Shown: positions 30,043 through 63,093 of the stretch, piece by piece | Layout of the letters: the number at the start of each line of letters is the position of its first letter | How positions within the stretch are numbered: position 1 is the first letter of the stretch | Origin: Gammaproteobacteria bacterium | GTDB lineage: Bacteria; Pseudomonadota; Gammaproteobacteria; Eutrophobiales; Eutrophobiaceae | Assembly (NCBI GenBank): GCA_965222155.1 | Contig: CBDCTH010000012.1 | Span: forward strand, 1,248,001 to 1,312,000 | Reading direction: 5' to 3' | Length of the DNA: 64,000 nt | Translations under genes and position numbers: made by a program | Notes under the pieces: model-generated | The model's input: the letters and a program-made list of their open reading frames with translations, nothing else | Told to the model about the DNA's origin: nothing | Database searches by the model: none

Positions 30043-30121
30043 CGTCATTCCGGCGAATGCCGGAATCCAGTAAACAAGGAATACTTTATTTGACTGGATT
30101 CCGGCATTCGCCGGAATGACG
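30043..30121. repeat. REP-like long inverted repeat
   Basis: CGTCATTCCGGCGAATGCCGGAATCCAGT ... ACTGGATTCCGGCATTCGCCGGAATGACG, perfect arms. Confidence 0.85.
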
Positions 30122-33130: not shown

Positions 33131-33221
33131 GGAGAGGTGGCAGAGCGGTTGAATGCACCGGTCTTGAAAACCGGCAAGGGTTAGTAGCCCTTCGTGGGTT
33201 CGAATCCCACCCTCTCCGCCA
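33131..33221 (+). tRNA. tRNA-Ser(TGA)
   Basis: GGAGAGG/CCTCTCC acceptor stem, CCGGT-CTTGAAA-ACCGG anticodon arm, long variable arm, GTTCGAATC T-loop and encoded CCA. Confidence 0.97.
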
Positions 33222-33290
33222 TAGGTGTTACGAAATTGTTGCTAAAATAGGGCTTTCGCGCCAACTCCTTGAATATTCGGGAGTATTTTT

Positions 33291-33560
33291 ATGAGCGCCC
33301 GCCCGAGAGTGCCTGTCGATGTATCGAATCCCTTAACTGACACCGCGGGTAGGATTCAGGTCAATCATTGCCGTATGCCGGATTGCGACAATTATGGTGT
33401 CGCGGCCCGCACGACCCCTGTCAAACCCGGCCCGTCTACAGACAACGACCCGCATTACAAGGTCGCCAGTACCAACAAGGGTCGGGTGTCCGCGCTGGTT
33501 TGCAAGTGTTGCGGTGAGAAACCGCCCATTAAATCCAACCAAGGGATTGCCGAGTATTGA
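33291..33560 (+). pseudogene. N-terminal fragment of the Zn-finger/DDE-like protein (paralog of 43475)
   Basis: IQVNHCRMPDCDNYG...NKGRVSALVCKCCGEKPPIKSN is shared with the 43475 ORF; ends just before the IS5 element. Confidence 0.85.
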
Positions 33561-34008
33561 CAACAACGCCGAGACCGGTCCTAATTAGTCGTCCCTGAAT
33601 AACCCCAAAAGCTATTCTAACCTATTGATTATATTTATGTAACCTGCATTTTTTCCTGCATTTTTTCCTGGACTGATATTGCCGGTTTTGGTATCATGGA
33701 CCTTCATTTTCTTGCAATATCGGAGATAAAAATGACGCCCAGACAACCTGACGCCGCTACCCGCACCTCAACCGACCTGTTCCGCGAACGCCTGGACACT
33801 ATGCTCAACCAACGCCATGCTTTATATCGCCTGGCCGACCGGGTGGACTGGTCGGTGTTTGATAAGGCATTCGGTGCGCGGTACTGCCCGGATAACGGCT
33901 GTCCGGGGAAACCGACCCGGTTGCTGGTGGGGTTGCACTATCTGACGCATTGTTACGGGTTATCCGATGAGGCGGTGGTGTCGGGCTGGGTGGAGAATCC
34001 GTACTGGC

Positions 34009-35868
34009 GTGTGCCACGAACATCAGCGGGGACGCTGATGGAGCTGTGTTGAAGATGGGAGTGTGGCCTCCCGGAGTCGGCCTGCAGGGGCAGGCTCCAA
34101 ACCACCGCCTGCTGCTGCGTGTAAGAGACGTGGTGGTGAGCGATGAGGAAAAGGCGGCAATAAAGCCGTCAGGTGAGTGATGAGAAGATGCGCGCGAGCG
34201 AACCGCTGATGACGCATCGAAATGGGGTCAAGACGCGGTCAAAACGGGTGCCGGTCAGTAGCACCCGGATAAGTGTGGACGGTGCCTGCGTACGCTCTGC
34301 GCGCCACCCGGTGATTAGGCGGCATGCTCGCATCACAGGCGTCAACACGGCACGTGGGCACCTGGCATGGGGTGGTAAGGAAAAGCCACAAGTGGCTCAC
34401 ACCACGAGGGAGAATACCGATACCCATGACAGGGTCGGAGCAACCCGTAGTAGTGCCGAAGGGGCGGTAATGGCGCTGGAGCGAAGGGGTTGCGTTATCC
34501 AGTCTGAGCCGTCACATCAACCGGGCCGAGCGGGAGGAGTGTGAGGGGTTCAGACAAACCGTTACCGGTCACCAGGCGCAGGGTCTGGGAGGCCTATACG
34601 TGGGTGAACGGGAAGGGAAAAGCGGCGGGCGTCGAGGGCCAGCGCCTCGCTGACGTTGCTCAGGACCTTGAGACTAACCTGTACAAGTTGTGGAATCGGC
34701 TGGCGTCGGGCAGTTACTTCCCGCCACCGGTACGGCGTGTAGCGATTCCCAAGGCCGCGGGCGGGGGCCGACCGCTGGGTAGTCCGACGGTCTCGGACCG
34801 CATGGCACAGAGGGTGGTCAAGCAGTATCTGGAGCCGGAGTGGGAGGTACTGTTCGACTCTGATTCCTACGGCTTCGGACCGGGCAAATCGGCCCATCAA
34901 GCGGTGGAGCAGGCGCGTAGGCGCGGCTGGGAATAGGACGGGGTCGTAGACCTCGACATGAAAGGCTTTTATGACACGATTGACCAGGAGCTGCTGAGGC
35001 GTGCGGTTCGCCGGCACACCCAGGAGAACGGGGTGCTGAGCTACATCGAACGATGGCTGAAAGCGCCGGTGGAAGTACCCGAGGGGTCAAGTCAGGAAAG
35101 ACTGACCGGCACGCTGCAAGGCGGGGTGGTCAGTCCGCTGCGGGCGAATGTGTGTCTGCATTATGCGTTGGACCAATGGCTGCGACGGAGTTACCCGAAC
35201 GTCCCGGTCGAGCGCTATGCTGATGACGCTGTTTGCCATTGCCGCACGCGGTGGCAGGCGGAGAAGCTGAAGTCGGCGCTGGAGGAGCGATGTGCCACCT
35301 GCCAGTTGACGCTACACCCGGAGAAGACCCAGGTGGTCTACTGCCAGGACAGCAATCGACGGGGGTCTTAGTCCCACCTCCGGTTCACCTTTCTTGGCTG
35401 TTGCTTCCGACCGCGCAGGGCAAAGAACCGTTGGGGGAAGCTCTTGACCAACTTCCTGCCGGCGGTAAGCCCGCAAGCACTCAAACGGATGCGGGCCCGA
35501 ATACGGAGGTGGCGCGTGCCGCAGCATGCGCCATGACCGCTGGAAGATAGTGCGCGTAGTCTCAATCCCGTTCTACGGGGCTGGGATCAGTACGACGGGC
35601 GATGCTACCCCACAGAGATGTGGACACTGTTCAAGTACGTTGACGAGCGACTCGGGGCCTGGCGCCGAAGGAAGTATAAGTCGCGCAAAGAGCACCGCGG
35701 GCGTAGCCGGCGGAGAGTGAACAACCGGGCCCGGCGAAACCCGTATCTTGTTGTCCATTGGGAACGACTTGGTCATGCAACGGTTGGATAACAAGAGCCG
35801 GATGAATCGAGAGATTCACGTTCGGTTCTGTGAGGGGCTGGGGGTGAAACTCCCCCGGTCTACTCGAC
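34009..35868 (+). mobile_element. Group II intron (RmInt1-like)
   Basis: 5' GTGTG; domain V GAGCCGGATGAATCGAGAGATTCACGTTCGGTTC at 35795-35828; domain VI ending AC; removal restores the transposase frame ENPYWQSVCG. Confidence 0.9.
34541..35791 (+). pseudogene. Group II intron reverse transcriptase/maturase, disrupted
   Basis: NLYKLWNR..SGSYFPPPVRRV.IPK, QGGVVSP and ERYADD; in-frame stops at 34934 and 35369 plus a later frameshift. Confidence 0.9.
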
Positions 35869-37430
35869 AGTCTGTCTGCGGGGCGGTGTACGTTCAGCAT
35901 GAGGCGCCGGTCGACCCGAGCAGCCTGACGCGCTGTCGCCGACGCATTGGGGAGTCGGGGTGTGCGCGGATTTTACAGGTGACGGTGGTGGCGGGGGTGC
36001 AGAGCAAGGCAGTGAAGACGACGGACTTCAAACGGGTGACGGTGGATACCACGGTACAGGAGATAAGCGGTGAGTTATGCGACCGACAGCAAGTTGCTGA
36101 ATCGGTCACGAGCGCGTCGGGTACGGTGATGTCGCAAGCAGGGGGTCACAGTACGTCAGAGCACTGCCCGCCAGGGACCCAAGGCGCTGCAACAGGCCAA
36201 TCGCTACGGTCATGCCAAACAGTATCGGCGGCTGCGGCGCGAGGTGAAGCGATTACGCACCTCCCCCTGCTCAACTCCATACAGGGGCAGGCTCTGGGGC
36301 GGGTGGTGCGTGACAGTGAGCGTAACACCGCGGGCAATCCGGCACAGCAGCGTATCTTTGCCGATGAATTGGCCTTAGCCAAGCGGCTGCTGGCGCAGCA
36401 GAAACAGGATAAACACAAGCTGTACAGCCTGCACGACCCGGAGGTGGAATGTATCAGTAAAGGGAAGGCGCACAAGCGGTATGAATTCGGGGTGAAGGCG
36501 AGTATTGCCACCACGAACAAGAGTAACTTCGTGGTGGGGGGTATGGCCTTGCCGGGCAGTCCGTATGACGGGCACACCTTGAAGGAAGCCCTGGCACAGG
36601 TGCGGCGCTTGACCGGGACGAGTATTGATGAGGCGTTTGTGGACAAGGGGCTATCGGGGGCATGATGAAACGGCGAGTACGGTGTATATCTCCGGGCAGA
36701 AGCGCGGCATTAAAACCCAACGATTGAAACGGTCGCTCAAGCGCCGCCAGGCAATTGAACCGGTCATCGGTCATTTGAAAGCCGACGGGCTGTTAGGGCG
36801 CAATCACCTGAACGGGACACAAGGCGACCAATTAAATGTCCTGTTGAGTTGTGCTGGCCACAACCTGCGCCTGATCCTGAGACGACTCAGGTTTTTTTGT
36901 CTCGAAAAAAGGATACTTATACTGGCTTGGCTCCGCGTGTTGGTGCCCGCAGAGCGTCTGTCAGGCATCGGCACACAGTTGAACCAAAAGCTGGCTGGTC
37001 TGGCTCCGCTACCGACGCCCATAATGGCAGCCTGAAATCGGGTTTTTCAGGATCGACTAACTATTTGTTCCAGTTCAGTTTATGTGCCATATGCGCCTGT
37101 TATTTCCCCTTACCCCCCCTTTTTGCAATCAAAATCAAGGTGGTAACATCCCCATGCCAGTTTGATGATATTACTCTCCTGATTCGCTGTAGTCTGCTTG
37201 TGCAACGTCTGATACTTCTTCCTTAAAGTCCTTTTGTGGCGTATGAAAATCGCTGTTTAAGCCTATTGAAAGCACGTCTTTTGTAACAGTTTCCCTTTAT
37301 TATCAGTAGGCTCCGTCAGGCTGGACTGGTCTGACCCTATACTGGTATCACACATTAAAGGGAACCTCTATTTATTTAGCCCATGATATAATATCGGTGA
37401 CTGATTTCAACACGTTGGTATGGAGATGCT

Positions 37431-37875
37431 ATGAAGACACAAGACCTGTTCGGTTCCTTTTTTGACCCTCAAGACAAACGACTGGCTAAACTGGGTGATC
37501 CGTTACTGCGCTTAGCGGAGACGGTAGACTGGGAGCAGTTTCGGCCGCTGTTGGAGCAGGTCAAGCCATCGGTGCGCAAGAGCAATGCGGGGGCGCCGCG
37601 GCGGGATGTGGTGCTGATGTTCAAGGGGTTGGTGATACAGGATTTGTACGGATTGAGTGATGAACAGTTGGAGTATCAGATTGAGGACCAGCGTAGTTTT
37701 CAGCGATTTTTGGGGTTGGACAGTTATCGTCGGGCACCGGATGCGAAGACGTTCTGGGCGTTTCGGGAGCGGCTGGTGGCGTTAGGGCTGATGGGAGATT
37801 TGTTTGAGCAGTTTGCAGGGCAGTTACAGGGTTTGGGGTATCGGGCACGCAAGGGGCAGTTGGTAGATGCCTATC
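37431..37875 (+). pseudogene. IS5-family transposase N-terminal fragment
   Basis: LAKLGDPL.RL...VDWE.FRP.L, MFK.LV.Q.LY.LSDEQ.EYQI.D..SF.RFLG and GQLVDA, then the ORF runs into the repeat. Confidence 0.85.
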
Positions 37876-38939
37876 GGGCGCTCAGGATAGGGTCGGACCC
37901 GCCTAACTATTTGTTCCAGTTCAGTTTATGTGCCATATGCGCCTGTTATTTCCCCTTACCCCCCCTTTTTGCCATCAAAATCAAGGTGGTAACATCCCCA
38001 TGCCAGTTTGATGATATTACTCTCCTGATTCGCTGTAGTCTGCTTGTGCAACGTCTGATACTTCCTCCTTAAAGTCCTTTTTTGGCGTATGAAAATCGCT
38101 GTTTAAGCCTATTGAAAGCACGTCTTTTGTAACAGTTTCCCTTTATTATCAGTAGGCTCCGTCAGGCTGGACTGGTCTGACCCTATACTGTAAACTAAAA
38201 CCATGGCACACCGCAAAAAAATGAACATCCGTGACCTGAACCGCAACCAACTGATCAAAACCAGCACGGCAAACTCCGTATGCAAATCCGGCACGAACTA
38301 CAGCACAACGAACACCCTTTTTAACCAGTACAAACCCAATCCGGTCCACACTCTGCTATAAACCATGAACATCCCTTTTTTGCATCGGCCCTCTTCATCA
38401 GTTTACTGGTTGCGATCAGACATCAAACACCTCAGAGATGATTTGAAAGAACGTCTGGACAAACAGGAGGAACGATTAAGTGATCTCTCACCCAGGTAGC
38501 TGCGCTCAAAGCCACGATAGAAACATTCTTCCGGGTCCGAATTATCCGCCGCCATCGCCGGAAAAACACGACCAGGCCGCCTGACCTCGCCGTCAAGACC
38601 AACAAAACACACGCAACCTCTCAACCGGCCCGACACCGACAATAAACACCGCGCGCCGCACCCTGCCTGCGGGCGCTCAGGATAGGGTCGGACCCGCCTA
38701 ACTATTTGTTCCAGTTCAGTTTATGTGCCAATGCGCCTGTTACCTTACCCCCCCTTTTTGCCATCAAAATCAAGGTGGTAACATCCCCATGCCAGTTTGA
38801 TGATATTACTCTCCTGATTCGCTGTAGTCTGCTGCAACGTCTGACAGTCCTTTTTTGGCGTATGAAAACTGTTTAAGCCTATTGAAAGCACGTCTTTTGT
38901 AACAGTTTCCCTTTATTATCAGTATCCGTCAGGCTGACT

Positions 38940-39392
38940 CGTATTTCACAGCAAAGCTGCCACCGATTACACGGCAAAGCTGCCACCCCCAAGCAGGTAG
39001 ATAACCGGCGCGTTTGACGTGGATAACCAAGGGTATCTGTCCTTATTTCTACTGAAACAGGTAGATGCGCTCAAATGGTTGTCCATGAGAAAGATAAAAG
39101 ACGTATTACGCCTGTGCTGGAGACATAGCAAACACAGGAGTTGTGGCATCTTCAGCCGAGATTGATTTGGAAAGCCCCAACCTGGTCACACATTCATCGG
39201 GAAACCGGAATGAACGATCACCCGCAAGGCTATCAACGGATCGTCAGGCTGGTACGCCAGGTAGCCTGCGCTCAAAGCCAACCGGGGAAGTCGTGAGGCA
39301 GAGGTGTTTGTGGCAGCGCTGGGCGCGTCGAACTACACCTATGCCGAGGCCACCTGGACCCAGGGCCTGGAAGATTGGATCGGCGCCCACGT
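38940..39392 (+). pseudogene. IS21-family (istA) remnant
   Basis: MRKIKDVLRL and [32 protein letters not shown] fragments; repeated GCAAAGCTGCCACC end motif. Confidence 0.75.
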
Positions 39393-40007
39393 CTTCCGGG
39401 TCCGAATTGATCCGCCGCCATCGCCGGAAAAACACGACCAGGCCGCCTGACCTCGCCGTCAAAGACCAACAAAACACACGCAACAACCGGCCTCTGCCAC
39501 CGACAATAAATACCGCCGAGTGGAAGCAGGCGCGGGATCGACTACACCGACAATAAACACCGCGCGCCGCACCCTGCCTGCGGGCGCTCAGGATAGGGTC
39601 GGACCCGCCTAACTATTTGTTCCAGTTCAGTTTATGTGCCATATGCGCCAGTTGTTATTTCCCCTTACCCCCCCTCGCCGAGCAGACCGAGTTTTGCCAT
39701 CAAAATCAAGGTGGTAACATCCCCATGCCAGTTTGATGATATTACTCTCCTGATTCGCTGTAGTCTGCTTGTGCAACGTCTGATACTTCCTCCTTAAAGT
39801 CCTTTTTTGGACTCCTCCAGGACAACGTATCGCCAAGGGCTTAAAGTCCTTTTTTGGCTGTTTAAGTTTAAGCCTATTGAAAGCACGTCTTTTGTAACAG
39901 TTTCCCTTTATTATCAGTAGGCTCCGTCAGGCTGGACTGGTCTGACCCTATACTGGTGACCCTATACTGGTATCGATAGCAGCGGCAGGTCTTATCTCCT
40001 GTATGGG

Positions 40008-40054
40008 TTGACATCTGTACGTTCATTACATATTATATTGTTATTAACGAACAG
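40008..40054 (+). promoter_or_regulatory. abiE promoter with an inverted-repeat operator
   Basis: TTGACA-N17-TATTAT; imperfect inverted repeat CTGTACGTTCATTACA / TGTTATTAACGAACAG. AbiEi proteins are known to autorepress through such repeats. Confidence 0.65.
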
Positions 40055-40075
40055 TTATCAGGGTGTTTAAATTCC

Positions 40076-40612
40076 ATGAACCAGGTCCGTGCCATTCACC
40101 GGTTAACGGCTCAGGACAGGCAGGGCAGGCAGGTATTCACTCATCGCGACCTCGCCACACTGTTCCCTGAGGACAACCCGCGCACGCTTCAGGCCGGCCT
40201 GGACAGGCTTGTCAAAAACGGTGTGCTGGTGCGCGCCGTGAACGGGGTCTATATCAATGCATTGTCGGCCGGCGGGTTTACTCACACGCTGGAAAACATT
40301 GCCAAGGCGATGCGCCGGGGCGAATACAGCTATGTCAGCCTCGAGTCCGCGTTATCCGAGTATGGGGTGATCTCGCAGATTCCGATGCGCCTGACCATCA
40401 TGACCACCGGTCGAAAAGGCGAGGTCACTACCTCATTCGGCACCATTGAGTTCACGCACACGGCACGCCCAGTGCATGACATTCTTGATGATATTCACGA
40501 TGTCGGCAGGCCGCTCAGACTGGCCGGCAAGCACAAGGCCTGTCGCGACCTCAGGCGGGTGGGGCGCAATACAGAACTTATTGATGAGGAGATGCTCCAT
40601 GAAAGTGACTGA
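40076..40612 (+). CDS. Type IV TA antitoxin, AbiEi-like
   Basis: Winged-HTH start (L.RLVK.G.L.R...GVY) and SYVSLESALSEYGVISQIP. Confidence 0.88.
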   Translation: MNQVRAIHRLTAQDRQGRQVFTHRDLATLFPEDNPRTLQAGLDRLVKNGVLVRAVNGVYINALSAGGFTHTLENIAKAMRRGEYSYVSLESALSEYGVISQIPMRLTIMTTGRKGEVTTSFGTIEFTHTARPVHDILDDIHDVGRPLRLAGKHKACRDLRRVGRNTELIDEEMLHESD

Positions 40613-41528
40613 GGTGGATTTCGACACACTGGTTGACAGGGCAATGAGTGACCCGCATGTTGCCGACATGGGTCCCGTCATTCGAAAGGAACTGTTGCAC
40701 TACGACATTCTGTTCTGTCTGGCTCAGTCCGGTATGCTGGATGATCTGGTCTTTCAGGGCGGCACATCATTACGCTTATGCTACGGTTCCAGGCGTTACA
40801 GCGAGGACCTGGATTTTGTGGGCGGCAGGGGGTTTACATCATCCGCCCTCAAAGACATGAAAAATTCTCTTGAAGATTATCTTGTTGCCCGGTACGGATT
40901 AGAGGTCACGGTTAAAGAACCCCCGGTTCTGAGGCAGGAACCGGATTATTCAGCGCTGAAAGTTGACAAGTGGCAAATATCAGTCGTGACCTATCCCGGA
41001 CGCCGTGACCTGCCCAGGCAACGCATCAAGATTGAGGTGGCCAACATTCCTGCCTACACGAGAGAAGTACTTCCATTGAGGAAAAACCACCCGTATTTGC
41101 CGGACGGCTACGATGATATCCTAATCGCCGTAGAGTCACTTGATGAGATTATGGCTGATAAGTTAGTGTCGCTTGCAGCGGCGGAGCATGTGCGCCATCG
41201 CGATATCTGGGATCTGTCGTGGCTGCAGCAACAGGGGGCCGGTATTCGATCTGATCTGGTAATGAGTAAGATTGATGACTACCGGGTAACCGGTTATCCG
41301 GCTCTGGTTGACAACATCATTGACCGATGCCCTTCTATCATAGATGGAGATTCCTTTCAAAATCAGATGAGACGGTTCCTGCCGACCGACATCCACAAGC
41401 AGACTCTGGGCAAGAACAGGCACAGGGGGGCACTGGCCGTTTCAATAACCGATTTGTATAAGGAGCTCAAACAGCGCTTGCTTGATGAGACAGACGACAA
41501 CGACGGCGGGGAGCAGTCACTTTCCTGA
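40599..41528 (+). CDS. Type IV TA toxin, AbiEii nucleotidyltransferase
   Basis: FQGGTSLRLCYG..RYSEDLDF, MADKLV and RHRDIWDL; the likely start at 40599 overlaps abiEi. Confidence 0.92.
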   Translation: MKVTEVDFDTLVDRAMSDPHVADMGPVIRKELLHYDILFCLAQSGMLDDLVFQGGTSLRLCYGSRRYSEDLDFVGGRGFTSSALKDMKNSLEDYLVARYGLEVTVKEPPVLRQEPDYSALKVDKWQISVVTYPGRRDLPRQRIKIEVANIPAYTREVLPLRKNHPYLPDGYDDILIAVESLDEIMADKLVSLAAAEHVRHRDIWDLSWLQQQGAGIRSDLVMSKIDDYRVTGYPALVDNIIDRCPSIIDGDSFQNQMRRFLPTDIHKQTLGKNRHRGALAVSITDLYKELKQRLLDETDDNDGGEQSLS

Positions 41529-41677
41529 ATTTGGGAACGCCTAGCTCTCCGCCATAGGCGTTCAAAATATACTGGCATAACAACAGGCCAGTCCCACCAT
41601 TTCCAATATTGTGATATAATGCACAATATACTTCACATAAACGTTAATAATGTCTATAATAGTGTTTGTTATAACTA

Positions 41678-42016
41678 TTGTATCAACCTGTAATCAGTAT
41701 GAATCAGACACCAAATAAAGCCTATCACATGTCCATACATGTCAAGCGTGCATTACGTGAACTGGGCGATGATATCCGCAAGGCCAGACTACGCAGGCGC
41801 CTGCCGATGGCTGTTGTCGCCGAACGCGCATCTATCAGCCGCGCCACGCTTACCAAAATTGAACGGGGCGACGGTGGTGTTGCGCTGGGCAACTACGCAA
41901 TGGTGCTTCATGCCTTGGGGCTACTTGAAGGTTTGCGTGAATTGGCTGCTTCAACGAATGACATAGTAGGACTTGCACTAGAGGAAGAGAAGTTGCCGCG
42001 CAGGGTACGCATGTAA
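41678..42016 (+). CDS. XRE-family HTH antitoxin (HipB-like)
   Basis: LG..IR.ARLRR.L....VAERA.ISR.TL.KIE.GD..V; upstream of hipA. Confidence 0.85.
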   Translation: MYQPVISMNQTPNKAYHMSIHVKRALRELGDDIRKARLRRRLPMAVVAERASISRATLTKIERGDGGVALGNYAMVLHALGLLEGLRELAASTNDIVGLALEEEKLPRRVRM

Positions 42017-42033
42017 CGACAGTAGGAACCAAC

Positions 42034-43365
42034 ATGAATGAAGTGTACGTGTATGCTGATCTGGAAGGTGCGCCGCAATTTGTCGGACGTCTGTGGACAC
42101 GTTCGCGCAAATACCATGAAGCCGCATCATTTGAGTACGATAAAACGTGGCTGTCATCAATTCAAAGATTTGCTCTGGAACCGGCACTGGCGCTCGGTAA
42201 AGGAGCGTACCATACCAATCAATCAGAACGGATGTTTGGCGCCATGGGCGACTCGGCGCCAGATCGTTGGGGTCGCTCACTCATGCGGCGCGCCGAAAAC
42301 AAGCGGGCAAGGAAAGCAGGCGAGACACAACGCACATTGATGGAACGGGACTATCTTCTTGGAGTCAATGATATGGCCAGGCAGGGTGCCCTGCGGTTTG
42401 CAGAGAAGCAGGGGGGACCGTATCTGTCAGAACCTGACGGCGGGCGGGGAGGTGCCATACCCCCCCTTATTTTTCTGCCTCGCCTGCTTGCTGCATCAGA
42501 CAACATCATCAATGAGACGGAAAGCGATGATGACCTGAACCTGCTGCTGGCACCCGGGGCGTCATTGGGCGGTGCGCGTCCCAAGGCTTCAGTCTTGGAC
42601 AGGGATGGTCATTTGTTGATCGCCAAGTTCCCGCGCGGGGATGATGAACATAACAAGGTTTTGTGGGAAGCTGTTGCGCTGGAACTCGCCAAAAAAGCCG
42701 GTGTTCCTGTACCGGATTACGAGGTAACATATGTTGCTGAAAAACCTGTTCTGCTAGTCCGCCGTTTTGACAGAAATGCCGGTACCCGAGTCCCGTATTT
42801 ATCCGCCATGAGCATGCTTGGCGCACAGGACCATGAACATCACAGTTATCTGGAAATAGTTGATGCGCTTCGTCAGCATGGCGCCGAAGCGCGCGCGGAC
42901 ATTGCCCAATTATGGCGTCGTATCGTCTATAACGTGATGGTGACGAATACGGATGATCACTTGCGCAACCATGGTTTTTTATACCAGAAACAAACCGGTT
43001 GGAGGTTGTCGCCTGCGTTTGATCTCAATCCTAGGCCAATTGATGCGGGTCACCGCATACTAACGACAGCGATTGACCTTGATGATAACGAGGCATCTCT
43101 GGCACTGGCATTACGCGTAGCAGGGCATTTTGAGTTGACCCTTAATGACGCCATAGAAACAGCCCGTGAGGTGGCTCAGGCAGTATCCAAATGGCGAGAT
43201 GTGGCTACCAAATTCAAATTATCCAGACAAGAGATTGGGCGCATGTCTTCAGCGTTTGAACATCGGCATCTTCAAGATGCGCTGAACAATTCAGTGACAT
43301 CATCCCATTCTTTTCCTAGCGAAACCACGGAAAGAAAAGATATCAACAAACCACCAAAGAGATAG
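42034..43365 (+). CDS. hipA: HipA-family kinase toxin
   Basis: DSAPDRWG, SLGGARPKA, AKFP, RRFDR, NTDDHLRNHGF and LSPAFDLNP. Confidence 0.93.
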   Translation: MNEVYVYADLEGAPQFVGRLWTRSRKYHEAASFEYDKTWLSSIQRFALEPALALGKGAYHTNQSERMFGAMGDSAPDRWGRSLMRRAENKRARKAGETQRTLMERDYLLGVNDMARQGALRFAEKQGGPYLSEPDGGRGGAIPPLIFLPRLLAASDNIINETESDDDLNLLLAPGASLGGARPKASVLDRDGHLLIAKFPRGDDEHNKVLWEAVALELAKKAGVPVPDYEVTYVAEKPVLLVRRFDRNAGTRVPYLSAMSMLGAQDHEHHSYLEIVDALRQHGAEARADIAQLWRRIVYNVMVTNTDDHLRNHGFLYQKQTGWRLSPAFDLNPRPIDAGHRILTTAIDLDDNEASLALALRVAGHFELTLNDAIETAREVAQAVSKWRDVATKFKLSRQEIGRMSSAFEHRHLQDALNNSVTSSHSFPSETTERKDINKPPKR

Positions 43366-43474
43366 CTGTTATGCCAGTATATTTTGAACGCCTAGCTCTC
43401 CGCCATAGGCGTTCAGAATTTACTGGCAAAATTAAAAATGGTATTATTTCTTATATATTACAAGGAGTTATGCC

Positions 43475-45428
43475 ATGATTGCACGGCCAGGAGTCCCTGT
43501 CAGTGTAGAAATTCCTATAGTCGGCAAGAAAAGCGATATTCAGGTCAATCATTGCCGCATGCCAGACTGTGATAACTACGGAATTCCCGCCATAACGACC
43601 CAGATTAAGCCCGGACCGTCACCTGACCGGGACATGCATTACAAGGTGGCAACCACAAATAAAGGTCGTGTGTCCGCACTGGTCTGCAAGTGTTGCGGTG
43701 AGAAACCACCCATTAAGTCCAACCTGGGGATTGCGGAGGAATTGGCCAGAATCAGCGATTTGCTTCTGGGGCCCGACCCGGGATGTCCTCGCAAGGACTG
43801 TGAAAATCATGGCAAAAGCACGGAAGCACATCCAAAACGTTACCATAAGCGCGGTCTTGATAATCACACGGGAAGGCCGGTAAGAGGCTGCAAGGCATGT
43901 GGTGGACGATTTCTCATCGGCATGGTTCCCCCACGAGTTCATCCGCAACACCATCACTTGGCGTCATCTGTCTTCAGCAGAGTGGTGAACAAAGCGCCGG
44001 TACGCCGCACCCTGCAAGGCATCGGCCTACTAGACAAGCCACAACTGTATTACGACATCATCCGCTTCATTCGACGGCGCTGCAATCACTTGATCGGCGG
44101 TCTGGAGCGGGGCATGTTGCGCGGGCAGGTACCGTTACCTGCAAACCTGCACCTGGTCACCGACCTGCAGCAATACCAGCTCAACTGGACAGACCGGTTG
44201 GACAAGCGCAATCCGATGTTCTCGGCCGTCTGTACGGTAGACCGTGACAGCCGTTACGTGTTCGGCCTGCACGCCAACTATGACCCCGATGCCGACGCCT
44301 TCGCCATTGCCAAGGAGGCCGCTGAGCGAGGGGATTTCGAGCAGTCGGAAGCATTTCGCCGTCATGCAAGGCTCTGGTTGCCGGGCGCTGAATTGATGGG
44401 TGGGCGCGCTGCCGGCGAGCGCCTGGGACTGGCTCGAGTGCGGGCACTGCAGAAACAGTTGACGGAGATTTATGCGTCCGCGGTGAGCCGGGCTGATGTC
44501 GAGGACCGGGAACTGCAGGAGATGCACCCGGGGTTGCACAACTCGCAGGCCGGCACTGGCGCAGGTGCACGTGCTGTACACGGTGTACGCACACTTCTTC
44601 CTGATGCGCCAGTTGCTGCTGGGCGCCGGGGTCAGGCAGGTAGAGTACTCCATGGATTGTGAGTCCCTGCTGCGCGGCGCTTTCCTGAGTGCCTACCGGG
44701 ACGAGGTAAAGGACGGCACAGCGCACGGGTTTTACGTGCGTCATCATAAATACCTGACCGTCACGGAGCGGGAAACGGCTAAAAAAGAAGCCCGAGCACG
44801 TTTGGCGGTCTTTCGGGCAGGCTTGCCGGAAGATCAGCAGCGTGAGGCGGCACTGCTGTTGATGATGCGCAATATTGAGGCCGCTACCGCTTATGGAAAA
44901 TGGCAGGACCGCTGATTTAACCACCCGCTGCCGACCATGAACGAGCCGGAAAAGGCCGTGTGCTGGTTGACGTAGCGTAATGTTGACCTGAACAGCCGGA
45001 CACTGGCAGGGATGGCCATGCGGGCTGGTCTGGGGCCGGTGGATAACGTGTTCCAATTGACGCGCCGTTTCATGAACGCCCTGGTGCGTCCCATCGGCAC
45101 GTCGTCCGGCTATAACACCGTCTGGCATGGTTATGCGCCGTACAACCCCGCCATGCTGCAGCAGTACCTGGATTTGTTTCGCACGGCGCACAATTTCTGT
45201 CACACGGGGGATGACAAACAGACGCCAGCCATGCGTCTGGGGCTGGCAGAGCAGCCGCTCAGCTACGATGACGTGCTGTGGCCGGGGCAAGTACCGCCGG
45301 CACCACCGGTTGAACCGCAGACAGCCGGTGTGGACCTGTTATCCCGTTGGGATGGAGAGAATGAGACGGTAACAGCAGAGCAGGATCTGCCGGCCCAGGA
45401 TCAACACCTGCCCGCGCCGGGTTTCTGA
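43475..45428 (+). pseudogene. Zn-finger plus putative DDE-like transposase of the tRNA-targeted elements (unit 3, left end at 43406)
   Basis: Cys clusters; acidic motifs VTD, SMD and VDNVF; C-terminal HNFC...QTPAMRLGL; frameshift near 44550 and stops at 44913 and 44973. Confidence 0.65.
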
Positions 45429-45452: not shown

Positions 45453-45938
45453 ATGACAACTGAAATACATCATGGTCAAGCCGAGGCCAATGACAGTGGT
45501 GCTGTGTCACCGGCTGTTTCGCCGATAAATTCTGTACACGGTGAACTTACTGAATATGAATACGAATGTGAACTGGAAGCCACCCAGGCCGAGCGTGCCC
45601 GGATAGTGCAGGAGACTGCATGGGATTCTGACCCGGACTGGCATGCGTTTCGGACATTGTGTTATCCGGACACCGAGACGCCCGATGCAGTGGCCATCAA
45701 AGAGGGAGTAAATCACTTGATTGCAGCCGCCCAACGCGGCCATGCGCCGGCCCAATGCCGATTGGCCACGGAATTGCACCTGGGAGAGGGTCGGTTGGGC
45801 ATTCAGCCGGACGTTTGCAAGGCAGTGGCCTGGTATCGGGCAGCGGCGAAGAACGGTGACCCGATTGCGCTTCAGTCCCTGGTTGTGTTGGAGGTAACCC
45901 ATCCCGATATCATGAAGCAGGACAGTGATGCATGTTGA
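45453..45938 (+). CDS. Sel1-like repeat protein
   Basis: AAQRGHAPAQCRLA and D..KAVAWYRAAAKNGD..A; GAGGAG ribosome-binding site. Confidence 0.7.
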   Translation: MTTEIHHGQAEANDSGAVSPAVSPINSVHGELTEYEYECELEATQAERARIVQETAWDSDPDWHAFRTLCYPDTETPDAVAIKEGVNHLIAAAQRGHAPAQCRLATELHLGEGRLGIQPDVCKAVAWYRAAAKNGDPIALQSLVVLEVTHPDIMKQDSDAC

Positions 45939-46038
45939 GCGGCATTCTCTGGTGGGCAAGGACTACAGCACCCCCGCCATGCGGCAAAATTCCCGGTAAA
46001 TCGTAAAAAGCCAAACCGCCGCCGGGAAATTTTCCGAA

Positions 46039-46068
46039 TTGACACTGTTTCGAGGATTGCCTTATAAT
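46039..46068 (+). promoter_or_regulatory. Sigma70 promoter of kinase 1
   Basis: TTGACA-N18-TATAAT; homologous copies precede the other two kinase genes. Confidence 0.8.
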
Positions 46069-46111
46069 CCTTAAACATCCTCGCACTGCAACCGGATACC
46101 TGTTTCAGTCC

Positions 46112-48805
46112 ATGACTTTCGACCACTTACATGCGCTGCCGCCCGGCACGCGCTTTGAGGAATACCGGCTGGATGTGGTGCTGGGCGCCGGGGGCTTCGG
46201 CATCACCTACCGGGCGTACGATGAAAACCTGGACAAGGTCGTGGCCATCAAGGAATACCTGCCTGATTTTGCTACCCGGACGGGGGCCAGCACGGTGGTG
46301 CCCAAATCCAGCACGGACGCTCAGGATTATCATTGGGGTTTGACCCGGTTCCTGGACGAGGCCCGCACCCTGGCGCGGTTCGACCATCCTCACATGAACA
46401 AGGTGCATCGCTTTTTCGAGGCCAACGGCACGGCCTACATGGTGCTGGAGTACATCCACGGCGAGACCCTGGCAAACCGGTTGAGCCGCGAACCGCGCTT
46501 ACCGGAGGAGACTTTGCTGCGGTTGCTGGACGAAGTCTTGTCTGGCCTGGCAGTGATACACGAAGCTAGGTACGTCCACCGTGACATCAAGCCGGGCAAC
46601 CTGATGTTGCGCGAAGAGGACGGGAGTGCGGTGCTGCTGGACTTCGGCGCGGCGCGCCAAGCCGTGGGGCAGCGTTCGCAGCGGTTGACGACGATTTTGA
46701 CACCGGGGTATGCGCCGATTGAGCAGTATGACGGCAAGGTGGACCGCGTCGGCGCGTGGACGGACATCTATGCGTTGGGGATGGTGGCGTACCGGTGTAT
46801 CAGCGGGACCGGTGATGGAGACCTGACGGATGCGGTGGCGCGTAAGCTGGCGCAACACGACGATAACGCGGGACTGGCCTCGGCTGTGGAAGCAGGAAGA
46901 GGCCGGTACAGTCCGAAGTTACTGGCGGCGATTGACTGGGCGATAGAGGTGGATGAGGAGTCTCGGCCGCAGGGGGTGAGTGAGTGGAGCGAGTCACTGG
47001 CCGGGGGGGTGAGCAAGAAACGCACAGCCAGGTCGGCACGCAAGCCCGCGACCCGGTCTGCAAAGCCCCCGACAACGGAGCGCACCGGCATGAGTTGGTC
47101 GAGCATGGCGCTGACGGTAGTGATTGTCGTGCTGCTGGGGGCGAGCGCCTGGCAGGGCTGGCGTTTGTACCAGGGGATGCCCGGGGTTGGCATGGCTGAC
47201 ACCGAAACAACGGCGGAGCCGCAGGCGGGTATTCAGACTGAACCACGAACAGGCACAGAGTCAGATATCCAGCTCGACAGTCCGGCACAGACCGCGCCAG
47301 AAACACCCGACACCAAGTTAGCGTCGGTAGACAGCACAAAGCCGGAAGCGAGCCAGCCGGTTACAGGGCCGAGCGCTTCACCGCCTCCTGAAGAAGATGA
47401 AGTCTCTCGTTTACTGGCGGCAGCCGAGGCCGACATCACGGCGCGGCGCTTGACCAGCCCTGTCGGGAACAATGCCTGGGAGAAGTATCAACGGGTATTG
47501 AGTTTATCCCCTGCCCACCCCGAAGCCATGGCGGGGATGGAGCGGGTGATGGGGAGTTACCTGGAGTTGTTCGGGGCTGCGCTGGAGCAGGAGGATTTTG
47601 ACAAGGCGGGTAGTTACCTGGGACGTATTCGTGAGTTACACCCGGACTCACCGGTGCTGGAGGAAGGTGTGCGCCGTATTGAAACGAGCAAGCAGGAGCA
47701 GGCGGACCGGTTGTCAAGGAGGCAGGCCATTCGGGCACGCCTGGACTCGTTTGAGACGGCGTTACGGCAGGATAAGCTGGACGAGGCGGCGGGTTACCTG
47801 GATCGAATACGCGCCCTGGATGCAAATGCAGCGGGGTTGGCAGAGGGGGAACAGCGTCTTGCCGAGGCCCGGCAGGCGGAGGCGGAGTTGGCGCGGCAAC
47901 GGCAGGCGGAGGCCGGCCGGCATGTAGCGCAGTTTGAGGAAGCGATGCAGGAAGGAGGCCTTGACAAGGCGGCGAGACACATCGCAGGCATTCGTAGATT
48001 ACACCCGGACTGGCCTGAACTGGGGGATGCAGAACAGCGTTTTGCCAAGGCCCGGGAGACAGAGAAGGAACGCCAGCGCAGAGAGGGCGAAGCAAGAGCG
48101 AGGGAACTGGCCGATGAAATGGTCTCGATACCCGCCGGCACGTTCCGCATGGGGGACATGAGTGGCGATGGTCAGAGTGATGAAAAACCGGTCCACCGCG
48201 TAAGGGTGTCGGCCTTCAATCTGGGCAAGTACGAGGTGACGTTTGCCCAATGGGACGCCTGCGTAGCGGACGGGGGTTGTGGCGGTTACCGGCCGGAGGA
48301 TTATGGCAGCGGCCGGGATAATCACCCGGTGATAAACGTCTCCTGGGACTATGTCCAGACGTTCATCTTCTGGTTGAATAAGAAGACCGGCGGTAATTTC
48401 CGCTTGCCGAGCGCGGCGGAGTGGGAGTATGCGGCCCGTGCCGGGAGCAAGACCAAATACTCTTGGGGGAACAGCATCGGCAGCAACCGGGCGAATTGCG
48501 ACGGTTGCGGCAGTCGATGGGATGATGACCGGACTGCGCCGGTGGGGAGTTTCTCTGCCAATGCCTGGGGGTTACATGACATGCACGGCAACGTGTGGGA
48601 GTGGACAGAGGACTGCTGGAACGACAGTTACGCGGGGGCGCCGAGTGACGGCCGCGCCTGGGAACTGGGGAACTGCGGCCGGCGTGTGCGTCGCGGCGGT
48701 TCCTGGAACGACGGGCCGTGGAACCTGCGTTCCGCCAGCCGTGACAGGTTTACCCGCTCGGACCGCCTCAACTTCATCGGCTTCCGCTTGGCCCAGGACA
48801 AGTAG
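46112..48805 (+). CDS. Receptor-like Ser/Thr kinase with TM helix, helical repeats and a C-terminal FGE-sulfatase (CLec-fold) domain; putative DGR target
   Basis: GAGGFG, VAIKE, HRDIKPGN, DFG and GYAPIEQ; TM segment ALTVVIVVLLGASAW; RLPS.AEWEYAARAG, GLHDMHGNVWEW and RGGSW...GFRLA. Confidence 0.93.
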   Translation: MTFDHLHALPPGTRFEEYRLDVVLGAGGFGITYRAYDENLDKVVAIKEYLPDFATRTGASTVVPKSSTDAQDYHWGLTRFLDEARTLARFDHPHMNKVHRFFEANGTAYMVLEYIHGETLANRLSREPRLPEETLLRLLDEVLSGLAVIHEARYVHRDIKPGNLMLREEDGSAVLLDFGAARQAVGQRSQRLTTILTPGYAPIEQYDGKVDRVGAWTDIYALGMVAYRCISGTGDGDLTDAVARKLAQHDDNAGLASAVEAGRGRYSPKLLAAIDWAIEVDEESRPQGVSEWSESLAGGVSKKRTARSARKPATRSAKPPTTERTGMSWSSMALTVVIVVLLGASAWQGWRLYQGMPGVGMADTETTAEPQAGIQTEPRTGTESDIQLDSPAQTAPETPDTKLASVDSTKPEASQPVTGPSASPPPEEDEVSRLLAAAEADITARRLTSPVGNNAWEKYQRVLSLSPAHPEAMAGMERVMGSYLELFGAALEQEDFDKAGSYLGRIRELHPDSPVLEEGVRRIETSKQEQADRLSRRQAIRARLDSFETALRQDKLDEAAGYLDRIRALDANAAGLAEGEQRLAEARQAEAELARQRQAEAGRHVAQFEEAMQEGGLDKAARHIAGIRRLHPDWPELGDAEQRFAKARETEKERQRREGEARARELADEMVSIPAGTFRMGDMSGDGQSDEKPVHRVRVSAFNLGKYEVTFAQWDACVADGGCGGYRPEDYGSGRDNHPVINVSWDYVQTFIFWLNKKTGGNFRLPSAAEWEYAARAGSKTKYSWGNSIGSNRANCDGCGSRWDDDRTAPVGSFSANAWGLHDMHGNVWEWTEDCWNDSYAGAPSDGRAWELGNCGRRVRRGGSWNDGPWNLRSASRDRFTRSDRLNFIGFRLAQDK
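48681..48774 (+). other. Putative DGR variable region VR1
   Basis: 23 differences from the paralog (55367-55460), 22 of them at codon positions 1 or 2, inside otherwise identical sequence. Confidence 0.85.
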
Positions 48806-52886: not shown

Positions 52887-52926
52887 CCTTAAACGCCTCA
52901 GCACTATAAATTGAGATCACAAACCC

Positions 52927-55491
52927 ATGACCATCGATCACATCCATGCCCTGCCGCCCGGCACCCGCTTTGAGGAATACCGGCTGGATGTGGTGCTGGG
53001 GGCCGGAGGCTTCGGGATTACCTACCGGGCGTACGATGCCCACCTGGACGTGCATGTCGCTATCAAGGAGTACCTGCCCGGGGAGTTTGCAACGCGGTCG
53101 GAGGGCAGCACAGTGGTACCCAAATCCAGCACGGACGTCCAGGATTATCAATGGGGCTTGAGCCGCTTCCTGGACGAGGCCCGTACCCTGGCGCGCTTTG
53201 ACCATCCGCACCTGAACAAGGTGCGCCGCTTTTTCGAGGCCAACGGTACGGCCTACATGGTGCTGGAGTACATTCACGGCGAGACCCTGGCTGCCCGACT
53301 GGGCCGCGATGCGCGCTTGCCGGAAGCGGCGTTGCTGCGCCTGCTGGAAGAAATCCTGTCGGGCCTGGCGGTGATACACAAGGCGGGCTACGTGCACCGG
53401 GACATCAAGCCGGGCAACCTGATGTTGCGGGAAGAGGACGGGAGCGCGGTGCTGCTGGACTTCGGCGCCGCCCGCCAGGCGGTGGGCCAGCGATCCAAGT
53501 CGATCACAAGCATCCTGACCCCGGGCTATGCCCCGATAGAGCAGTATGACAGCAAGGCGGACGACGTGGGGCCGTGGAGCGATATCTATGCGTTGGGCAT
53601 GGTGGCCTACAAGTGTATCAGCGGGACGGGTGACGGGGCGTTGCCGGATGCGGTGACGCGAGGCCGGGCACAGCGCAAGGGCGGGGTGGACCTGGCCTCG
53701 GCGGCGGTAGCGGGCAAGGGCCGGTACAGTCCGAAGTTATTGGAAGCGATAGACTGGGCGATTGAGGTGGATGAGGAGGCCCGTCCGCAAGGGGTAGCTG
53801 AGTGGTTGGAAGCATTGGCGGGGGGTAGTAGCAAGCATCGTAAAACCGGCACCGGGCACAAGCCCGCGACCCGGCCTGCAAAGGCCCCGGCGACCGAGCG
53901 CACCGGCATGAGTTGGTCGAGCATGGCGCTGACGGCGGTGATTGTCGTGCTGCTGGGGGCGAGCGCCTGGCAGGGCTGGCGGCTATACCGGGGTATGCCG
54001 GTGGTTACCCCGGATGAAACGACCACCATGGCGGAGTCACAGGATGAATCACAGACAGACAGGGAATCAGACCCACAAACAACAGGGACACCGGTGGACA
54101 CAGGGTCGGACAGTCCGGCGGAGACTGCACCAGTTATGTCCGAAACTGAGCCAGTAGCGTCGGCGGACAGCGCAGCAGCGCAGCAACCGGCGGCGGACCC
54201 GGCCAAGGATGCGCCTGCTGAAGAAGACGAGGTAACCCGGTTGCTGGCGGGGGCTGATGCGGACATCACGGCGTGGCGCTTGACCAGCCCTGTCGGAAAC
54301 AACGCCTGGGAGAAGTATCAACGGGTACTGAGTTTATCGCCGACGCACCCGGCGGCCATGGCGGGGATGGAGCGGGTTATAGGGAGTTATATGGCGTTAT
54401 TCGGGGCGGCGCTGGAGCAGGAGGACTTTGACCAGGCTGACAGTTACCTTGAGCGTATCCGCGCCCTGCACCCGGACTCCCCTGCTCTGTTGACGGGGAA
54501 AAAGCAGTTGGAAGTGGCCAAACAGGCGCGTGCCGAGCGTCTGGCTGAGCAGGAGAGGCAACGTCAGGCGGAGGAAGCGGCGCGCCAGGCGGAACTGGAG
54601 CAGCAACGCATTGCCCGTGCCATTGAGGGACATTGGGAAGCGTTTGAGACTGCAATGCAGCGGGATGGGTGGGATGAGGCGGCGGGTAACCTCAATCAGG
54701 TACGCGACCTGAATCCCGATGAGCCGGGTCTGGCAACAGGGGAGCGGCGTCTGGCAGCGGCGCGGGAGGCCGCCCGGCAGAAGGCGCTGCAATATGTCGG
54801 TGAAATGGTCTCGATACCCGCCGGCACGTTCCGCATGGGGGACATGAGTGGCGATGGTCAGAGTGATGAAAAACCGGTCCACCGCGTAAGGGTGTCGGCC
54901 TTCAATCTGGGCAAGTACGAGGTGACGTTTGCCCAATGGGACGCCTGCGTAGCGGACGGGGGTTGTGGCGGTTACCGGCCGGAGGATTATGGCAGCGGCC
55001 GGGATAATCACCCGGTGATAAACGTCTCCTGGGACTATGTCCAGACGTTCATCTTCTGGTTGAATAAGAAGACCGGCGGTAATTTCCGCTTGCCGAGCGC
55101 GGCGGAGTGGGAGTATGCGGCCCGTGCCGGGAGCAAGACCAAATACTCTTGGGGGAACAGCATCGGCAGCAACCGGGCGAATTGCGACGGTTGCGGCAGT
55201 CGATGGGATGATGACCGGACTGCGCCGGTGGGGAGTTTCTCTGCCAATGCCTGGGGGTTACATGACATGCACGGCAACGTGTGGGAGTGGACAGAGGACT
55301 GCTGGAACGACAGTTACGCGGGGGCGCCGAGTGACGGCCGCGCCTGGGAACTGGGGAACTGCGGCCAGCGTGTGATTCGCGGCGGTTCCTTGTTCCACGG
55401 ACCGGGGGGCCTGCGTTCCGCCTCCCGTGGCTGGAATACCCGCTCGTACCGCGGCTCCTACATCGGCTTCCGCTTGGCCCAGGACAAGTAG
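52927..55491 (+). CDS. Receptor-like Ser/Thr kinase with a C-terminal FGE-sulfatase (CLec-fold) domain, paralog 2; putative DGR target
   Basis: Same architecture and intact catalytic motifs as the 46112 gene. Confidence 0.93.
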   Translation: MTIDHIHALPPGTRFEEYRLDVVLGAGGFGITYRAYDAHLDVHVAIKEYLPGEFATRSEGSTVVPKSSTDVQDYQWGLSRFLDEARTLARFDHPHLNKVRRFFEANGTAYMVLEYIHGETLAARLGRDARLPEAALLRLLEEILSGLAVIHKAGYVHRDIKPGNLMLREEDGSAVLLDFGAARQAVGQRSKSITSILTPGYAPIEQYDSKADDVGPWSDIYALGMVAYKCISGTGDGALPDAVTRGRAQRKGGVDLASAAVAGKGRYSPKLLEAIDWAIEVDEEARPQGVAEWLEALAGGSSKHRKTGTGHKPATRPAKAPATERTGMSWSSMALTAVIVVLLGASAWQGWRLYRGMPVVTPDETTTMAESQDESQTDRESDPQTTGTPVDTGSDSPAETAPVMSETEPVASADSAAAQQPAADPAKDAPAEEDEVTRLLAGADADITAWRLTSPVGNNAWEKYQRVLSLSPTHPAAMAGMERVIGSYMALFGAALEQEDFDQADSYLERIRALHPDSPALLTGKKQLEVAKQARAERLAEQERQRQAEEAARQAELEQQRIARAIEGHWEAFETAMQRDGWDEAAGNLNQVRDLNPDEPGLATGERRLAAAREAARQKALQYVGEMVSIPAGTFRMGDMSGDGQSDEKPVHRVRVSAFNLGKYEVTFAQWDACVADGGCGGYRPEDYGSGRDNHPVINVSWDYVQTFIFWLNKKTGGNFRLPSAAEWEYAARAGSKTKYSWGNSIGSNRANCDGCGSRWDDDRTAPVGSFSANAWGLHDMHGNVWEWTEDCWNDSYAGAPSDGRAWELGNCGQRVIRGGSLFHGPGGLRSASRGWNTRSYRGSYIGFRLAQDK
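55367..55460 (+). other. Putative DGR variable region VR2
   Basis: Aligned with VR1; encodes QRVIRGGSLFHGPGGLRSASRGWNTRSYRGSY. Confidence 0.85.
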
Positions 55492-63053: not shown

Positions 63054-63093
63054 CCATAACCACCCGAGCGCCATAACCGGAGACTGACATCCC

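Follow-up and report, generated by a model that had tools for sequence, protein, structure and literature searches.

Genomic islands linked to tRNA genes are taken as the work of tyrosine or serine integrases. In such islands, including tycheposons, insertion takes place at tRNA 3' ends, the tRNA is regenerated, tandem arrays are formed, and accessory or defence genes are carried as cargo. The enzymes are tyrosine or serine recombinases, and the islands have direct att repeats without terminal inverted repeats. Here, we describe a tRNA-linked island analyzed in a stretch of 64,000 nucleotides from a gammaproteobacterium (assembly GCA_965222155.1, contig CBDCTH010000012.1, positions 1,248,001 to 1,312,000 of the forward strand), referred to below as the window. 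This island starts at the 3' end of a tRNA-Ser(tga) gene, is divided into units by inverted repeats, and contains two copies of a gene for a Cys-rich protein, the candidate transposase of these units.

Casposons use Cas1 and PolB, and their target is tRNA-Pro. In Tn7-like elements, transposition depends on TnsB (rve), TnsC, and TniQ or TnsD and produces 5-bp duplications. For casposons, inverted repeats are described together with duplication of the target, tandem copies, and a specific insertion site at the 3' end of a tRNA gene (PMC4779613, PMC4046053). Tn7-like and CRISPR-associated transposons belong to the DDE type, and for them orientation-specific insertion is described at a safe site beside a conserved gene, with defence and toxin-antitoxin genes as cargo (PMC8649781). 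Dada, a eukaryotic group, is described as a DDE element with an N-terminal CCCC zinc finger, specific for tRNA and small nuclear RNA genes and distantly IS256-like, with 6-7-bp duplications and insertion inside the RNA genes (PMC3706591). The IS1202 group is characterized as a DDE family of insertion sequences (IS) with a strict dif/pdif sequence target (PMC10132070). TIGER/Islander, the largest pipeline for island detection, needs an integrase gene (PMC12424338); therefore, islands like the present one would not be called.

Elements stacked behind tRNA-Ser(tga)

The region is probably a fossil stack of site-specific DDE transposons, presumably brought by transposition to the 3' end of tRNA-Ser(tga); we put the probability of this reading at about 0.8. 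The only tRNA found by ARAGORN in the window is this gene (33131-33221, plus strand), which is intact including CCA and would be the insertion target. Its last 10 nt, CTCTCCGCCA, comprise the last 6 nt of the acceptor stem, the discriminator G, and CCA (33212-33221). This core was found exactly three times in the 64 kb, always on the plus strand, at 33212, 41545 (41545-41554), and 43396 (43396-43405), against 0.15 copies expected; three copies were reached in 0 of 100 shuffles. Both internal copies share the same 29-nt context, GAACGCCTA-G-CTCTCCGCCA-TAGGCGTTC (41535-41563 and 43386-43414), that is, a right inverted repeat, G, the core, and a left inverted repeat. Downstream of the tRNA gene, the sequence reads CTCTCCGCCA-TAGGTGTTA. 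The terminal motif TAGGYGTT is not significant by itself (8 matches in the window versus 2.7 expected, with 8 reached in 1 of 100 shuffles), and five of the eight matches are junction copies. Thus, significance rests on the core and the repeats combined, not on this 8-mer. The base 5' of the core is C in the tRNA and G in all internal copies (position 41544 for the second copy); therefore, the G belongs to the right end of the element and not to the duplication. The duplicated stretch is 10 bp, or 9 bp with the first base of the element giving the final A of the tRNA.

Three units, all on the plus strand, lie at least partly in the window. Unit 1 (33222-41544) is degraded; its left inverted repeat begins with TAGGTGTTACGAAATT, and its right one ends with AATTTGGGAACGCCTAG. 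Only the first 88 codons of its transposase gene are left (33291-33560), 73% identical to the intact homolog P0003. A toxin-antitoxin pair recognized by Pfam, consisting of a DUF6088 (AbiEi-like) protein and AbiEii (40076-41528), abuts the right end of this unit. Unit 2 (41555-43395) is a 1.84-kb non-autonomous element with perfect terminal inverted repeats of 28 nt (41555-41582 and 43367-43394), and it contains only genes for a helix-turn-helix (HTH) protein (41678-42016) and HipA (42034-43365). Unit 3 begins at 43406 with a left inverted repeat (43406-43431) and extends past position 64000. Its transposase pseudogene (43475-45428) is 84-90% identical to the 651-aa P0003 and is interrupted by a single frameshift near 44560 and by two stop codons in frame. 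The Cys-rich open reading frames (ORFs) of units 1 and 3 both start 69 bp inside the left ends (33291 versus 33222 and 43475 versus 43406), are 78% identical to each other over 201 nt, and show 73% protein identity to the same homolog.

No right end of unit 3 was found within the window: GAACGCCTA with at most one mismatch gave 14 matches versus 11.5 expected, and the matches exact in context were the known junctions only. In the genome itself, the next junction stands at window-equivalent position 68112, where a degenerate core is followed by TAGGCGTTCAG, and a further one, G-CTCTCCGCCA-TAGGTATTAC, stands at 96150. The terminal right end, GTAACGGCTA-G-CTCTCCGCCA, occupies window-equivalent positions 99456-99474 and is followed by an unrelated flank. 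In total, the stack comprises five units and ~66 kb, up to window-equivalent position ~99,474. A profile search revealed no other copy of the Cys-rich gene in this genome. Every element in this genome is now without a working enzyme; the stack is thus a fossil and, at present, could be mobilised only by an incoming helper.

Much of this anatomy had been proposed in a sequence-only reading of the same DNA. The recurrence of the tRNA end at 41545 and 43396, the terminal inverted repeats bounding the segments, and the same Cys-rich gene in units 1 and 3 were all borne out, by exact matches, by the perfect repeats of unit 2, and by the alignment of the two ORFs, respectively. The claimed duplication of ~10 bp has to be given as 9 or 10 bp, the preceding G being derived from the element. 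The array had been ended at 45428, wrongly, since this position is merely the end of the unit-3 transposase pseudogene and the stack runs to 99,474. The closure of unit 3 that was to be sought past 64000 exists as the junction at 68112, but with the degenerate core and an unrecognisable right repeat.

Elsewhere in the genome, a left end of the family type also follows tRNA-Ser(cga), located on contig C4, and tRNA-Ser(gga), located at C12:1013048. At tRNA-Ser(gga), a copy of G plus the core lies 6.4 kb downstream, without a recognisable right repeat; the cargo of this 6.4-kb island includes HipBA, a PIN protein, and an FGE-sulfatase protein. At tRNA-Ser(cga), no distal copy was found within 44 kb at up to five mismatches. 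Two more tRNA-like ends in the genome contain the core once each and are without an element. As a separate observation, at C12:1040957 of this genome (G000, minus strand), the sequence GGGCCCGAAACCCTCCCCTCTCCGCCA has a T-arm-like hairpin followed by the same core at its end, and it may represent a piece of a tRNA gene or another site that was once targeted.

The Cys-rich protein and its relatives

Full-length homologs of the Cys-rich protein have ~650 aa. Most of the 81 proteins obtained in a homolog search have 560-655 aa, and none of the 81 has a Pfam domain; scanning five members against Pfam at E<=10 gave nothing above cut-off. The IS1-type DDE domain (PF03400, or NF033558 above its cut-off) was likewise not found. 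Against NCBIfam, only sub-threshold similarities were seen, between residues ~120-200 and the first 80 positions of the IS1 model as well as zinc-binding models of IS1, IS1595, and IS256. For the IS1 model NF033558, positions 5-82 were aligned with an E-value of 1.9e-8 and a score of 34.5 versus a cut-off of 100, covering the N-terminus only. Profile comparison with Escherichia coli InsA by hhalign gave a probability of 78.6% and an E-value of 1.7e-5 over 64 columns. In a 24-member alignment, C104, C109, C139, C142, D230, D256, D395, and E491 are invariant, and C27, C32, C71, and C74 are nearly so; the conserved Cys residues make up two zinc ribbons.

The AlphaFold model of the protein has a mean pLDDT of 77.5 and a pTM of 0.79, and structural alignment over residues ~160-593 identified an RNase H-like fold. 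D230 and D395 are located at strand ends of the model, in positions as expected, and are predicted to be the first two catalytic residues. The third may be N574, with E491 and E538 as alternatives; N574 belongs to the motif R570-x3-N574 in the last long helix, within the range of the structural alignments. An Asn at the corresponding catalytic position is known for IS1595. We read the Cys-rich protein as a transposase of the DDE type whose DNA-binding head resembles that of IS1.

Other resources added little to this picture. Searching the PDB by sequence profile gave only noise from C2H2 zinc fingers (best E-value 0.011), and PHROGs gave a weak match to a "transposase" family in the HTH region only. 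The neighbours in the ESM Atlas have no common Pfam family, and the nearest named cluster, which carries DDE_Tnp_IS1 and has a score of 0.85, is a lead only. The family itself is large, with 2742, 1750, and 720 representatives at 50% identity for E-values of at most 1e-3, 1e-10, and 1e-30, respectively. It has no Pfam or NCBIfam model, and its members are annotated in the source records as "hypothetical protein" (RefSeq) or "transposase-like protein". Remote full-length homologs (~22% identity, 650 aa, annotated as hypothetical) are present on a Staphylococcus aureus plasmid (L088) and in 90 Enterococcus plasmid records. On one Gram-positive plasmid stretch, the homolog lies beside dfrG and cadD; the superfamily thus extends to clinical plasmids.

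Relatives were examined in species-representative genomes, where the best 80 of 280 loci confirmed among 456 pattern matches were used. Those with ~35% identity are elements of 1.93-2.3 kb with inverted repeats of 25-28 nt. Their ends begin with CTAGCCGTT, CAAGCCGT, or CGAGCCGAT, contain GGTGTTG, and match the right end in the window read inward, CTAGGCGTT; the terminal motif common to the stack and the IS relatives is C-N-A-G-S-C-G-T. Among the 26 IS-sized loci with recognisable termini, perfect flanking direct repeats were found in 16 (9 bp in 12 loci and 10 bp in 4), and repeats with one mismatch were found in two. One genome has two 100% identical copies of a 1982-bp IS (L071 and L072) with different flanking direct repeats of 9 and 10 bp, CAGATTGTG at one locus and GAATTCGTTC at the other. 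These IS relatives appear to behave as staggered-cut transposons, with a 9-10-bp duplication equal to the core length in the window. The sequence just outside the duplication is self-complementary in at least 8 of 10 positions in 11 of the 26 loci. By eye, IS such as those at L042, L063, L071, L072, L074, and L077 occupy the loops of hairpins that are rich in GC, precede T-runs, and resemble terminators, which suggests a structure-directed target choice in the ancestral clade.

At the 14 closest loci (43-83% identity), the 450 bp around the gene contain no second repeat, apart from one spurious pair at L012; therefore, they are parts of larger elements. In 11 of these 14 loci, a tRNA-type core adjoins a family-type repeat. 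L001 lies directly 3' of a tRNA-Ser(tga), with the gene 60 bp inside the end, as in the window, and L013 lies, frameshifted, at a tRNA-Ser(gga). Cores of the Ser type precede the gene in L003, L004, L005, L009, and L012, and in L007 and L008 it is the far end that bears the core. The core of L014 is GGGGCGCGCCA, and the same junction is present at the end of tRNA-Arg(tcg) in that genome. In L011, the core is GGGCTCCACCA and follows a T-arm-like hairpin. For tmRNA, considered as a third target, the Rfam score was 20.1 bits against a gathering threshold of 47, and ARAGORN reported none; it is a lead only.

The combined pattern of core and repeat was found 21 times in five genomes and 0 times in controls with the reversed pattern. 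Runs spaced by 425 bp correspond to miniature elements of ~414 bp with full repeats. These miniatures also occur in tandem, parted by the 10-bp tRNA-Ser core, with up to three in a row (L004:5392-5828 and genome G002). An element of more than 13 kb is present twice in one genome with 99% identity (L007 and L008); both copies end in right repeat, G, and core, beyond which lies a further element in one case and unrelated DNA in the other. In genome G003, junctions at 2849424 and 2869565 bound a 20-kb unit, and the transposase gene at its start is uninterrupted.

A quick maximum-likelihood tree was built for 37 of the 80 loci. In it, all 24 IS-sized members are on one side of a branch with 99% SH-aLRT support, and the tRNA-end members are on the other side, except for the frameshifted L013. 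The orientation of the gene relative to the core is constant in each sub-clade: the gene lies at the tRNA-proximal end in units 1 and 3 of the window and in L001, and at the distal end in eight loci of the other sub-clade. This constancy fits orientation-specific insertion. The expectation of the sequence-only reading that homologs would lie at tRNA 3' ends with matching repeats thus came true for the 11 of 14 closest loci; the general claim that the family inserts at tRNA 3' ends applies to close relatives in other genomes and not to all homologs, since tRNA targeting is the property of one clade. The DDE-type family assignment made in that reading gains support from the RNase H/DDE fold and from the 9-10-bp duplications of the IS relatives.

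Origin of the stack

In the proposed explanation, each element is bounded by inverted repeats starting with (C/A)TAGSCGTT, and autonomous copies carry the gene for a transposase of ~650 aa at ~60-70 bp or ~175 bp inside one end. The transposase is envisaged as two N-terminal zinc ribbons, an HTH domain like that of IS1 InsA, and a catalytic domain with the RNase H fold. Its zinc-finger/HTH head would bind the inverted repeats, and the catalytic domain would cut the tRNA gene at its very end, with a stagger of 9-10 bp, and join the element there. Repair would then duplicate CTCTCCGCC(A), leaving the tRNA intact and placing a second target copy at the far end of the element. If this distal copy, or the tRNA itself, were hit again, head-to-tail stacking would result. 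Elements without a transposase, such as unit 2 (HipBA only) and the 425-bp miniatures elsewhere, would be moved in trans via their repeats, and toxin-antitoxin pairs at the element ends would presumably stabilise the insertions. The reaction chemistry, the target recognition, and the insertion order are all reconstructed here, and both cut-and-paste and copy-out/paste-in would be compatible with the data.

Several observations weigh against transposition by the Cys-rich protein. Both transposase copies of this genome are broken, and no right repeat is recognisable at the junctions 68112 and C12:1019442. At the position of the C in the right end, the left end begins with A or is without the terminal C; the ends may be asymmetric, or a 9-bp duplication may have been made with the element supplying the last A of the tRNA. 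With respect to the protein, Foldseek alone gave no match at E<=0.001 (the top match was ISCth4 at 7e-3), no profile similarity to IS1 InsB was detected (hhalign probability 0.3%), and the third catalytic position has three candidates, N574, E491, and E538. Among the relatives, 8 of the 26 IS-sized loci have no flanking direct repeat, and 3 of the 14 closest loci (L002, L006, and L010) have no core near the gene.

The same holds for the search for empty sites, carried out with the gene to the right of the island in 31 genomes and with the tRNA and left flank in 23 genomes. No clean pair of empty and filled tRNA sites was found in either set, and in genomes of the same genus the site was always occupied or rearranged. 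No tRNA or core was found within 1.5 kb of the right-flank gene at eight loci, and in genome G025 a degenerate left end and remnants of AbiE lie behind the tRNA, but no right end. Read-level evidence was limited to contigs from four runs of three studies, some of them probably from the source sample. Contigs span 40318-44266 in X1 and X2, and one X3 contig departs after 43422. No joint lacking unit 2 was seen among the contigs, which cannot settle this point. One low-depth contig (depth 2.8, side 25) joins the two transposase copies, from 33554 to 43982.

To survey other recombinases, the whole genome was searched with PF00589 (tyrosine recombinases), PF00239 (serine recombinases), Cas1, rve, and TniQ, the island being C12:1281222-1347474. 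Positive controls matched for all recombinase families, the control for TniQ only below cut-off. Neither PF00589 nor PF00239 was found in the island or at the two other occupied tRNA-Ser loci, and the PF00589 matches in the genome are all far from the island. Cas1 was absent from the island, all five matches in the genome lying outside, and rve had no match in the island; TniQ had no match in the genome, its control itself being below cut-off. The absence of a tyrosine or serine recombinase, pointed out in the sequence-only reading, thus stands, but the recombinase would be the Cys-rich protein itself.

The junctions can also be viewed as crossover sites. In this explanation, which we find improbable, inverted repeat, 11-bp spacer, and inverted repeat would form a site like lox, dif, or attC, the segments would be exchangeable cassettes, and conservative site-specific recombination would be catalyzed by the Cys-rich protein with another chemistry or by a host enzyme, e.g., XerCD, in trans. 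The resemblance to recombinase cores is real, with inverted arms of 9-28 nt around the 11-bp spacer, and both the constant orientation to the tRNA within each clade and the cassette-like unit 2 without its own enzyme agree with it. However, the fold of the protein is that of DDE/RNase H enzymes and not of tyrosine or serine recombinases, and the 9-10-bp repeats of the IS relatives are unrelated between sites, which is the signature of staggered cuts and not of a fixed core. Furthermore, the tRNA-proximal site has no matching left arm, and the only PF00589 matches are those far from the island.

The copies of CTCTCCGCCA might also be leftovers of attL and attR in a decayed integrase island, with the Cys-rich gene as unrelated cargo, for instance a chance IS. 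Genes for tRNA-Ser are common integrase targets, the island is degraded and contains IS5 and reverse-transcriptase debris, and among genomes of the genus, tRNA-Ser(tga) and the conserved gene of the flank are anywhere between 2 and 66 kb apart. Such an origin is nevertheless very unlikely: the repeat has just 10 bp and is always bracketed by the inverted repeats of the family, the transposase gene stands at a fixed distance from the end in unrelated genomes, the same architecture recurs at tRNA-Arg, and no integrase or remnant of one was found in the 66 kb. Local duplication or homologous recombination between tRNA-Ser islands, rather than successive insertions, is a highly improbable source of the repeats, since the units differ in contents and repeat variants and neither the inverted repeats nor the IS relatives would be explained. 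Related ends at three tRNA-Ser genes of the genome agree with such recombination, and the weak contig joint from 33554 to 43982 hints at it; it may reshuffle stacks, not create them.

Beyond the stack as a product of DDE transposition, a wider proposal is put forward only tentatively. The family may amount to a superfamily without a name, widespread and made up of DDE transposons that each rely on one protein. Within it, one clade would have changed its target from the loops of hairpins or terminators to structured-RNA genes (tRNA-Ser, tRNA-Arg, perhaps tmRNA). At the 3' ends of these genes, it would stack defence and toxin-antitoxin cassettes in the manner of an integron, yet without an integrase. 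The target might be chosen by the shape of the DNA or by a T-arm-like sequence resembling the element's own end; by eye, TTCGAATCCCACC and TTTGAACGCCTAG match at 7 of 13 positions.

Cargo, other features, and described systems

The toxin-antitoxin and defence-like cargo noted in the sequence-only reading was confirmed for AbiE and HipBA, and more of it lies past the window. There, the stack contains a reverse transcriptase, a second DUF6088/AbiEi gene, Fic, GmrSD, type I restriction subunits S and R, and genes of metabolism. The last right end of the stack is adjoined by a MazE/PIN pair, and the toxin-antitoxin pairs found in the stack are HipBA, AbiE, and VapBC. The first cargo of unit 3 (45453-48805, plus strand) consists of genes for a Sel1-repeat protein and a fusion of a Ser/Thr kinase with an FGE-sulfatase domain. 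In all, three paralogous genes for such a fusion were found (46112-48805, ~52925-55600, and 63092-64000), each with a conserved 63-nt block upstream (46025, 52843, and 63010), and the FGE-sulfatase protein of the small tRNA-Ser(gga) island is related to them; these genes may be a cargo module typical of these elements.

The debris of unit 1 (33696-39957, plus strand) includes fragments of IS5-family (DUF772) transposases, fragments of a reverse transcriptase, and four tandem repeats of ~790-940 bp. The latter (37054-39957) are up to 99-100% identical and contain N-terminal DUF772 fragments; such a tandem amplification of an IS fragment inside the unit is odd. Genes with the RVT_1 domain are present in units 1 and 3, fragmented at 34541-35371 and as a 360-aa ORF at L084:1525-2607 (window-equivalent 65525-66607), respectively. 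A long run of 21-bp-periodic repeats at 59995-61622 would encode heptad-like repeats rich in Gln, Ala, and Glu. Outside the stack, a 32-nt inverted repeat with 97% complementarity and a 15-nt loop (30043-30121) lies upstream of a gene for a luciferase-like monooxygenase.

The island of 66 kb was apparently built by a DDE transposase family and would represent a second route, with another mechanism, by which defence islands become anchored at tRNA genes. The family may also illustrate how transposases of one kind are retargeted in nature, hairpin loops giving way to tRNA-Ser, tRNA-Arg, and perhaps tmRNA. If this is true, a single protein with simple ends makes kilobase insertions at a harmless, defined site and is a candidate tool for targeted insertion. 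In the open full-text literature (subscription journals, ISfinder, and TnCentral not being covered), no description was found of this family, nor of any DDE transposons of bacteria with a specificity for the 3' ends of tRNA genes. As far as could be searched, the elements represent a clade not described before, which targets tRNA 3' ends and builds islands there without integrases; the DDE transposase family to which this clade belongs is large and has no name.

Among bacterial IS, the family is similar to the IS1/IS1595 type in having inverted repeats and an N-terminal zinc ribbon and HTH that resemble IS1 InsA. The target duplication of IS1, ~9 bp, is also similar to that of this family. In contrast, the protein is about three times longer and has an extra zinc ribbon, its catalytic domain has no match to IS1 models or InsB, and the elements range from 2 kb to tens of kb, with one clade specific for tRNA ends. 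Compared with the transposases of the IS256-family ISCth4 and of Tn5, for which structures are solved, sequence identity is 6-8% and the N-terminal domains are different; Transposase_mut and DDE_Tnp_1 gave no match in the Pfam scan. The IS1202 group differs in transposase family, target, and size, and it is without cargo. Dada, likened here by description only, shares the DDE type, the zinc finger, and the specificity for RNA genes and differs in host, duplication, and position.

Tn7-like elements differ from the present ones in their machinery, since a single protein is the only candidate here. Casposons have the same combination of repeats, duplication, tRNA 3' end, and tandem copies, whereas this island has no Cas1 gene. 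Finally, the islands of tRNA integrases, including tycheposons, are alike in site, tRNA regeneration, stacking, and cargo and differ in the enzyme and in having no terminal inverted repeats.

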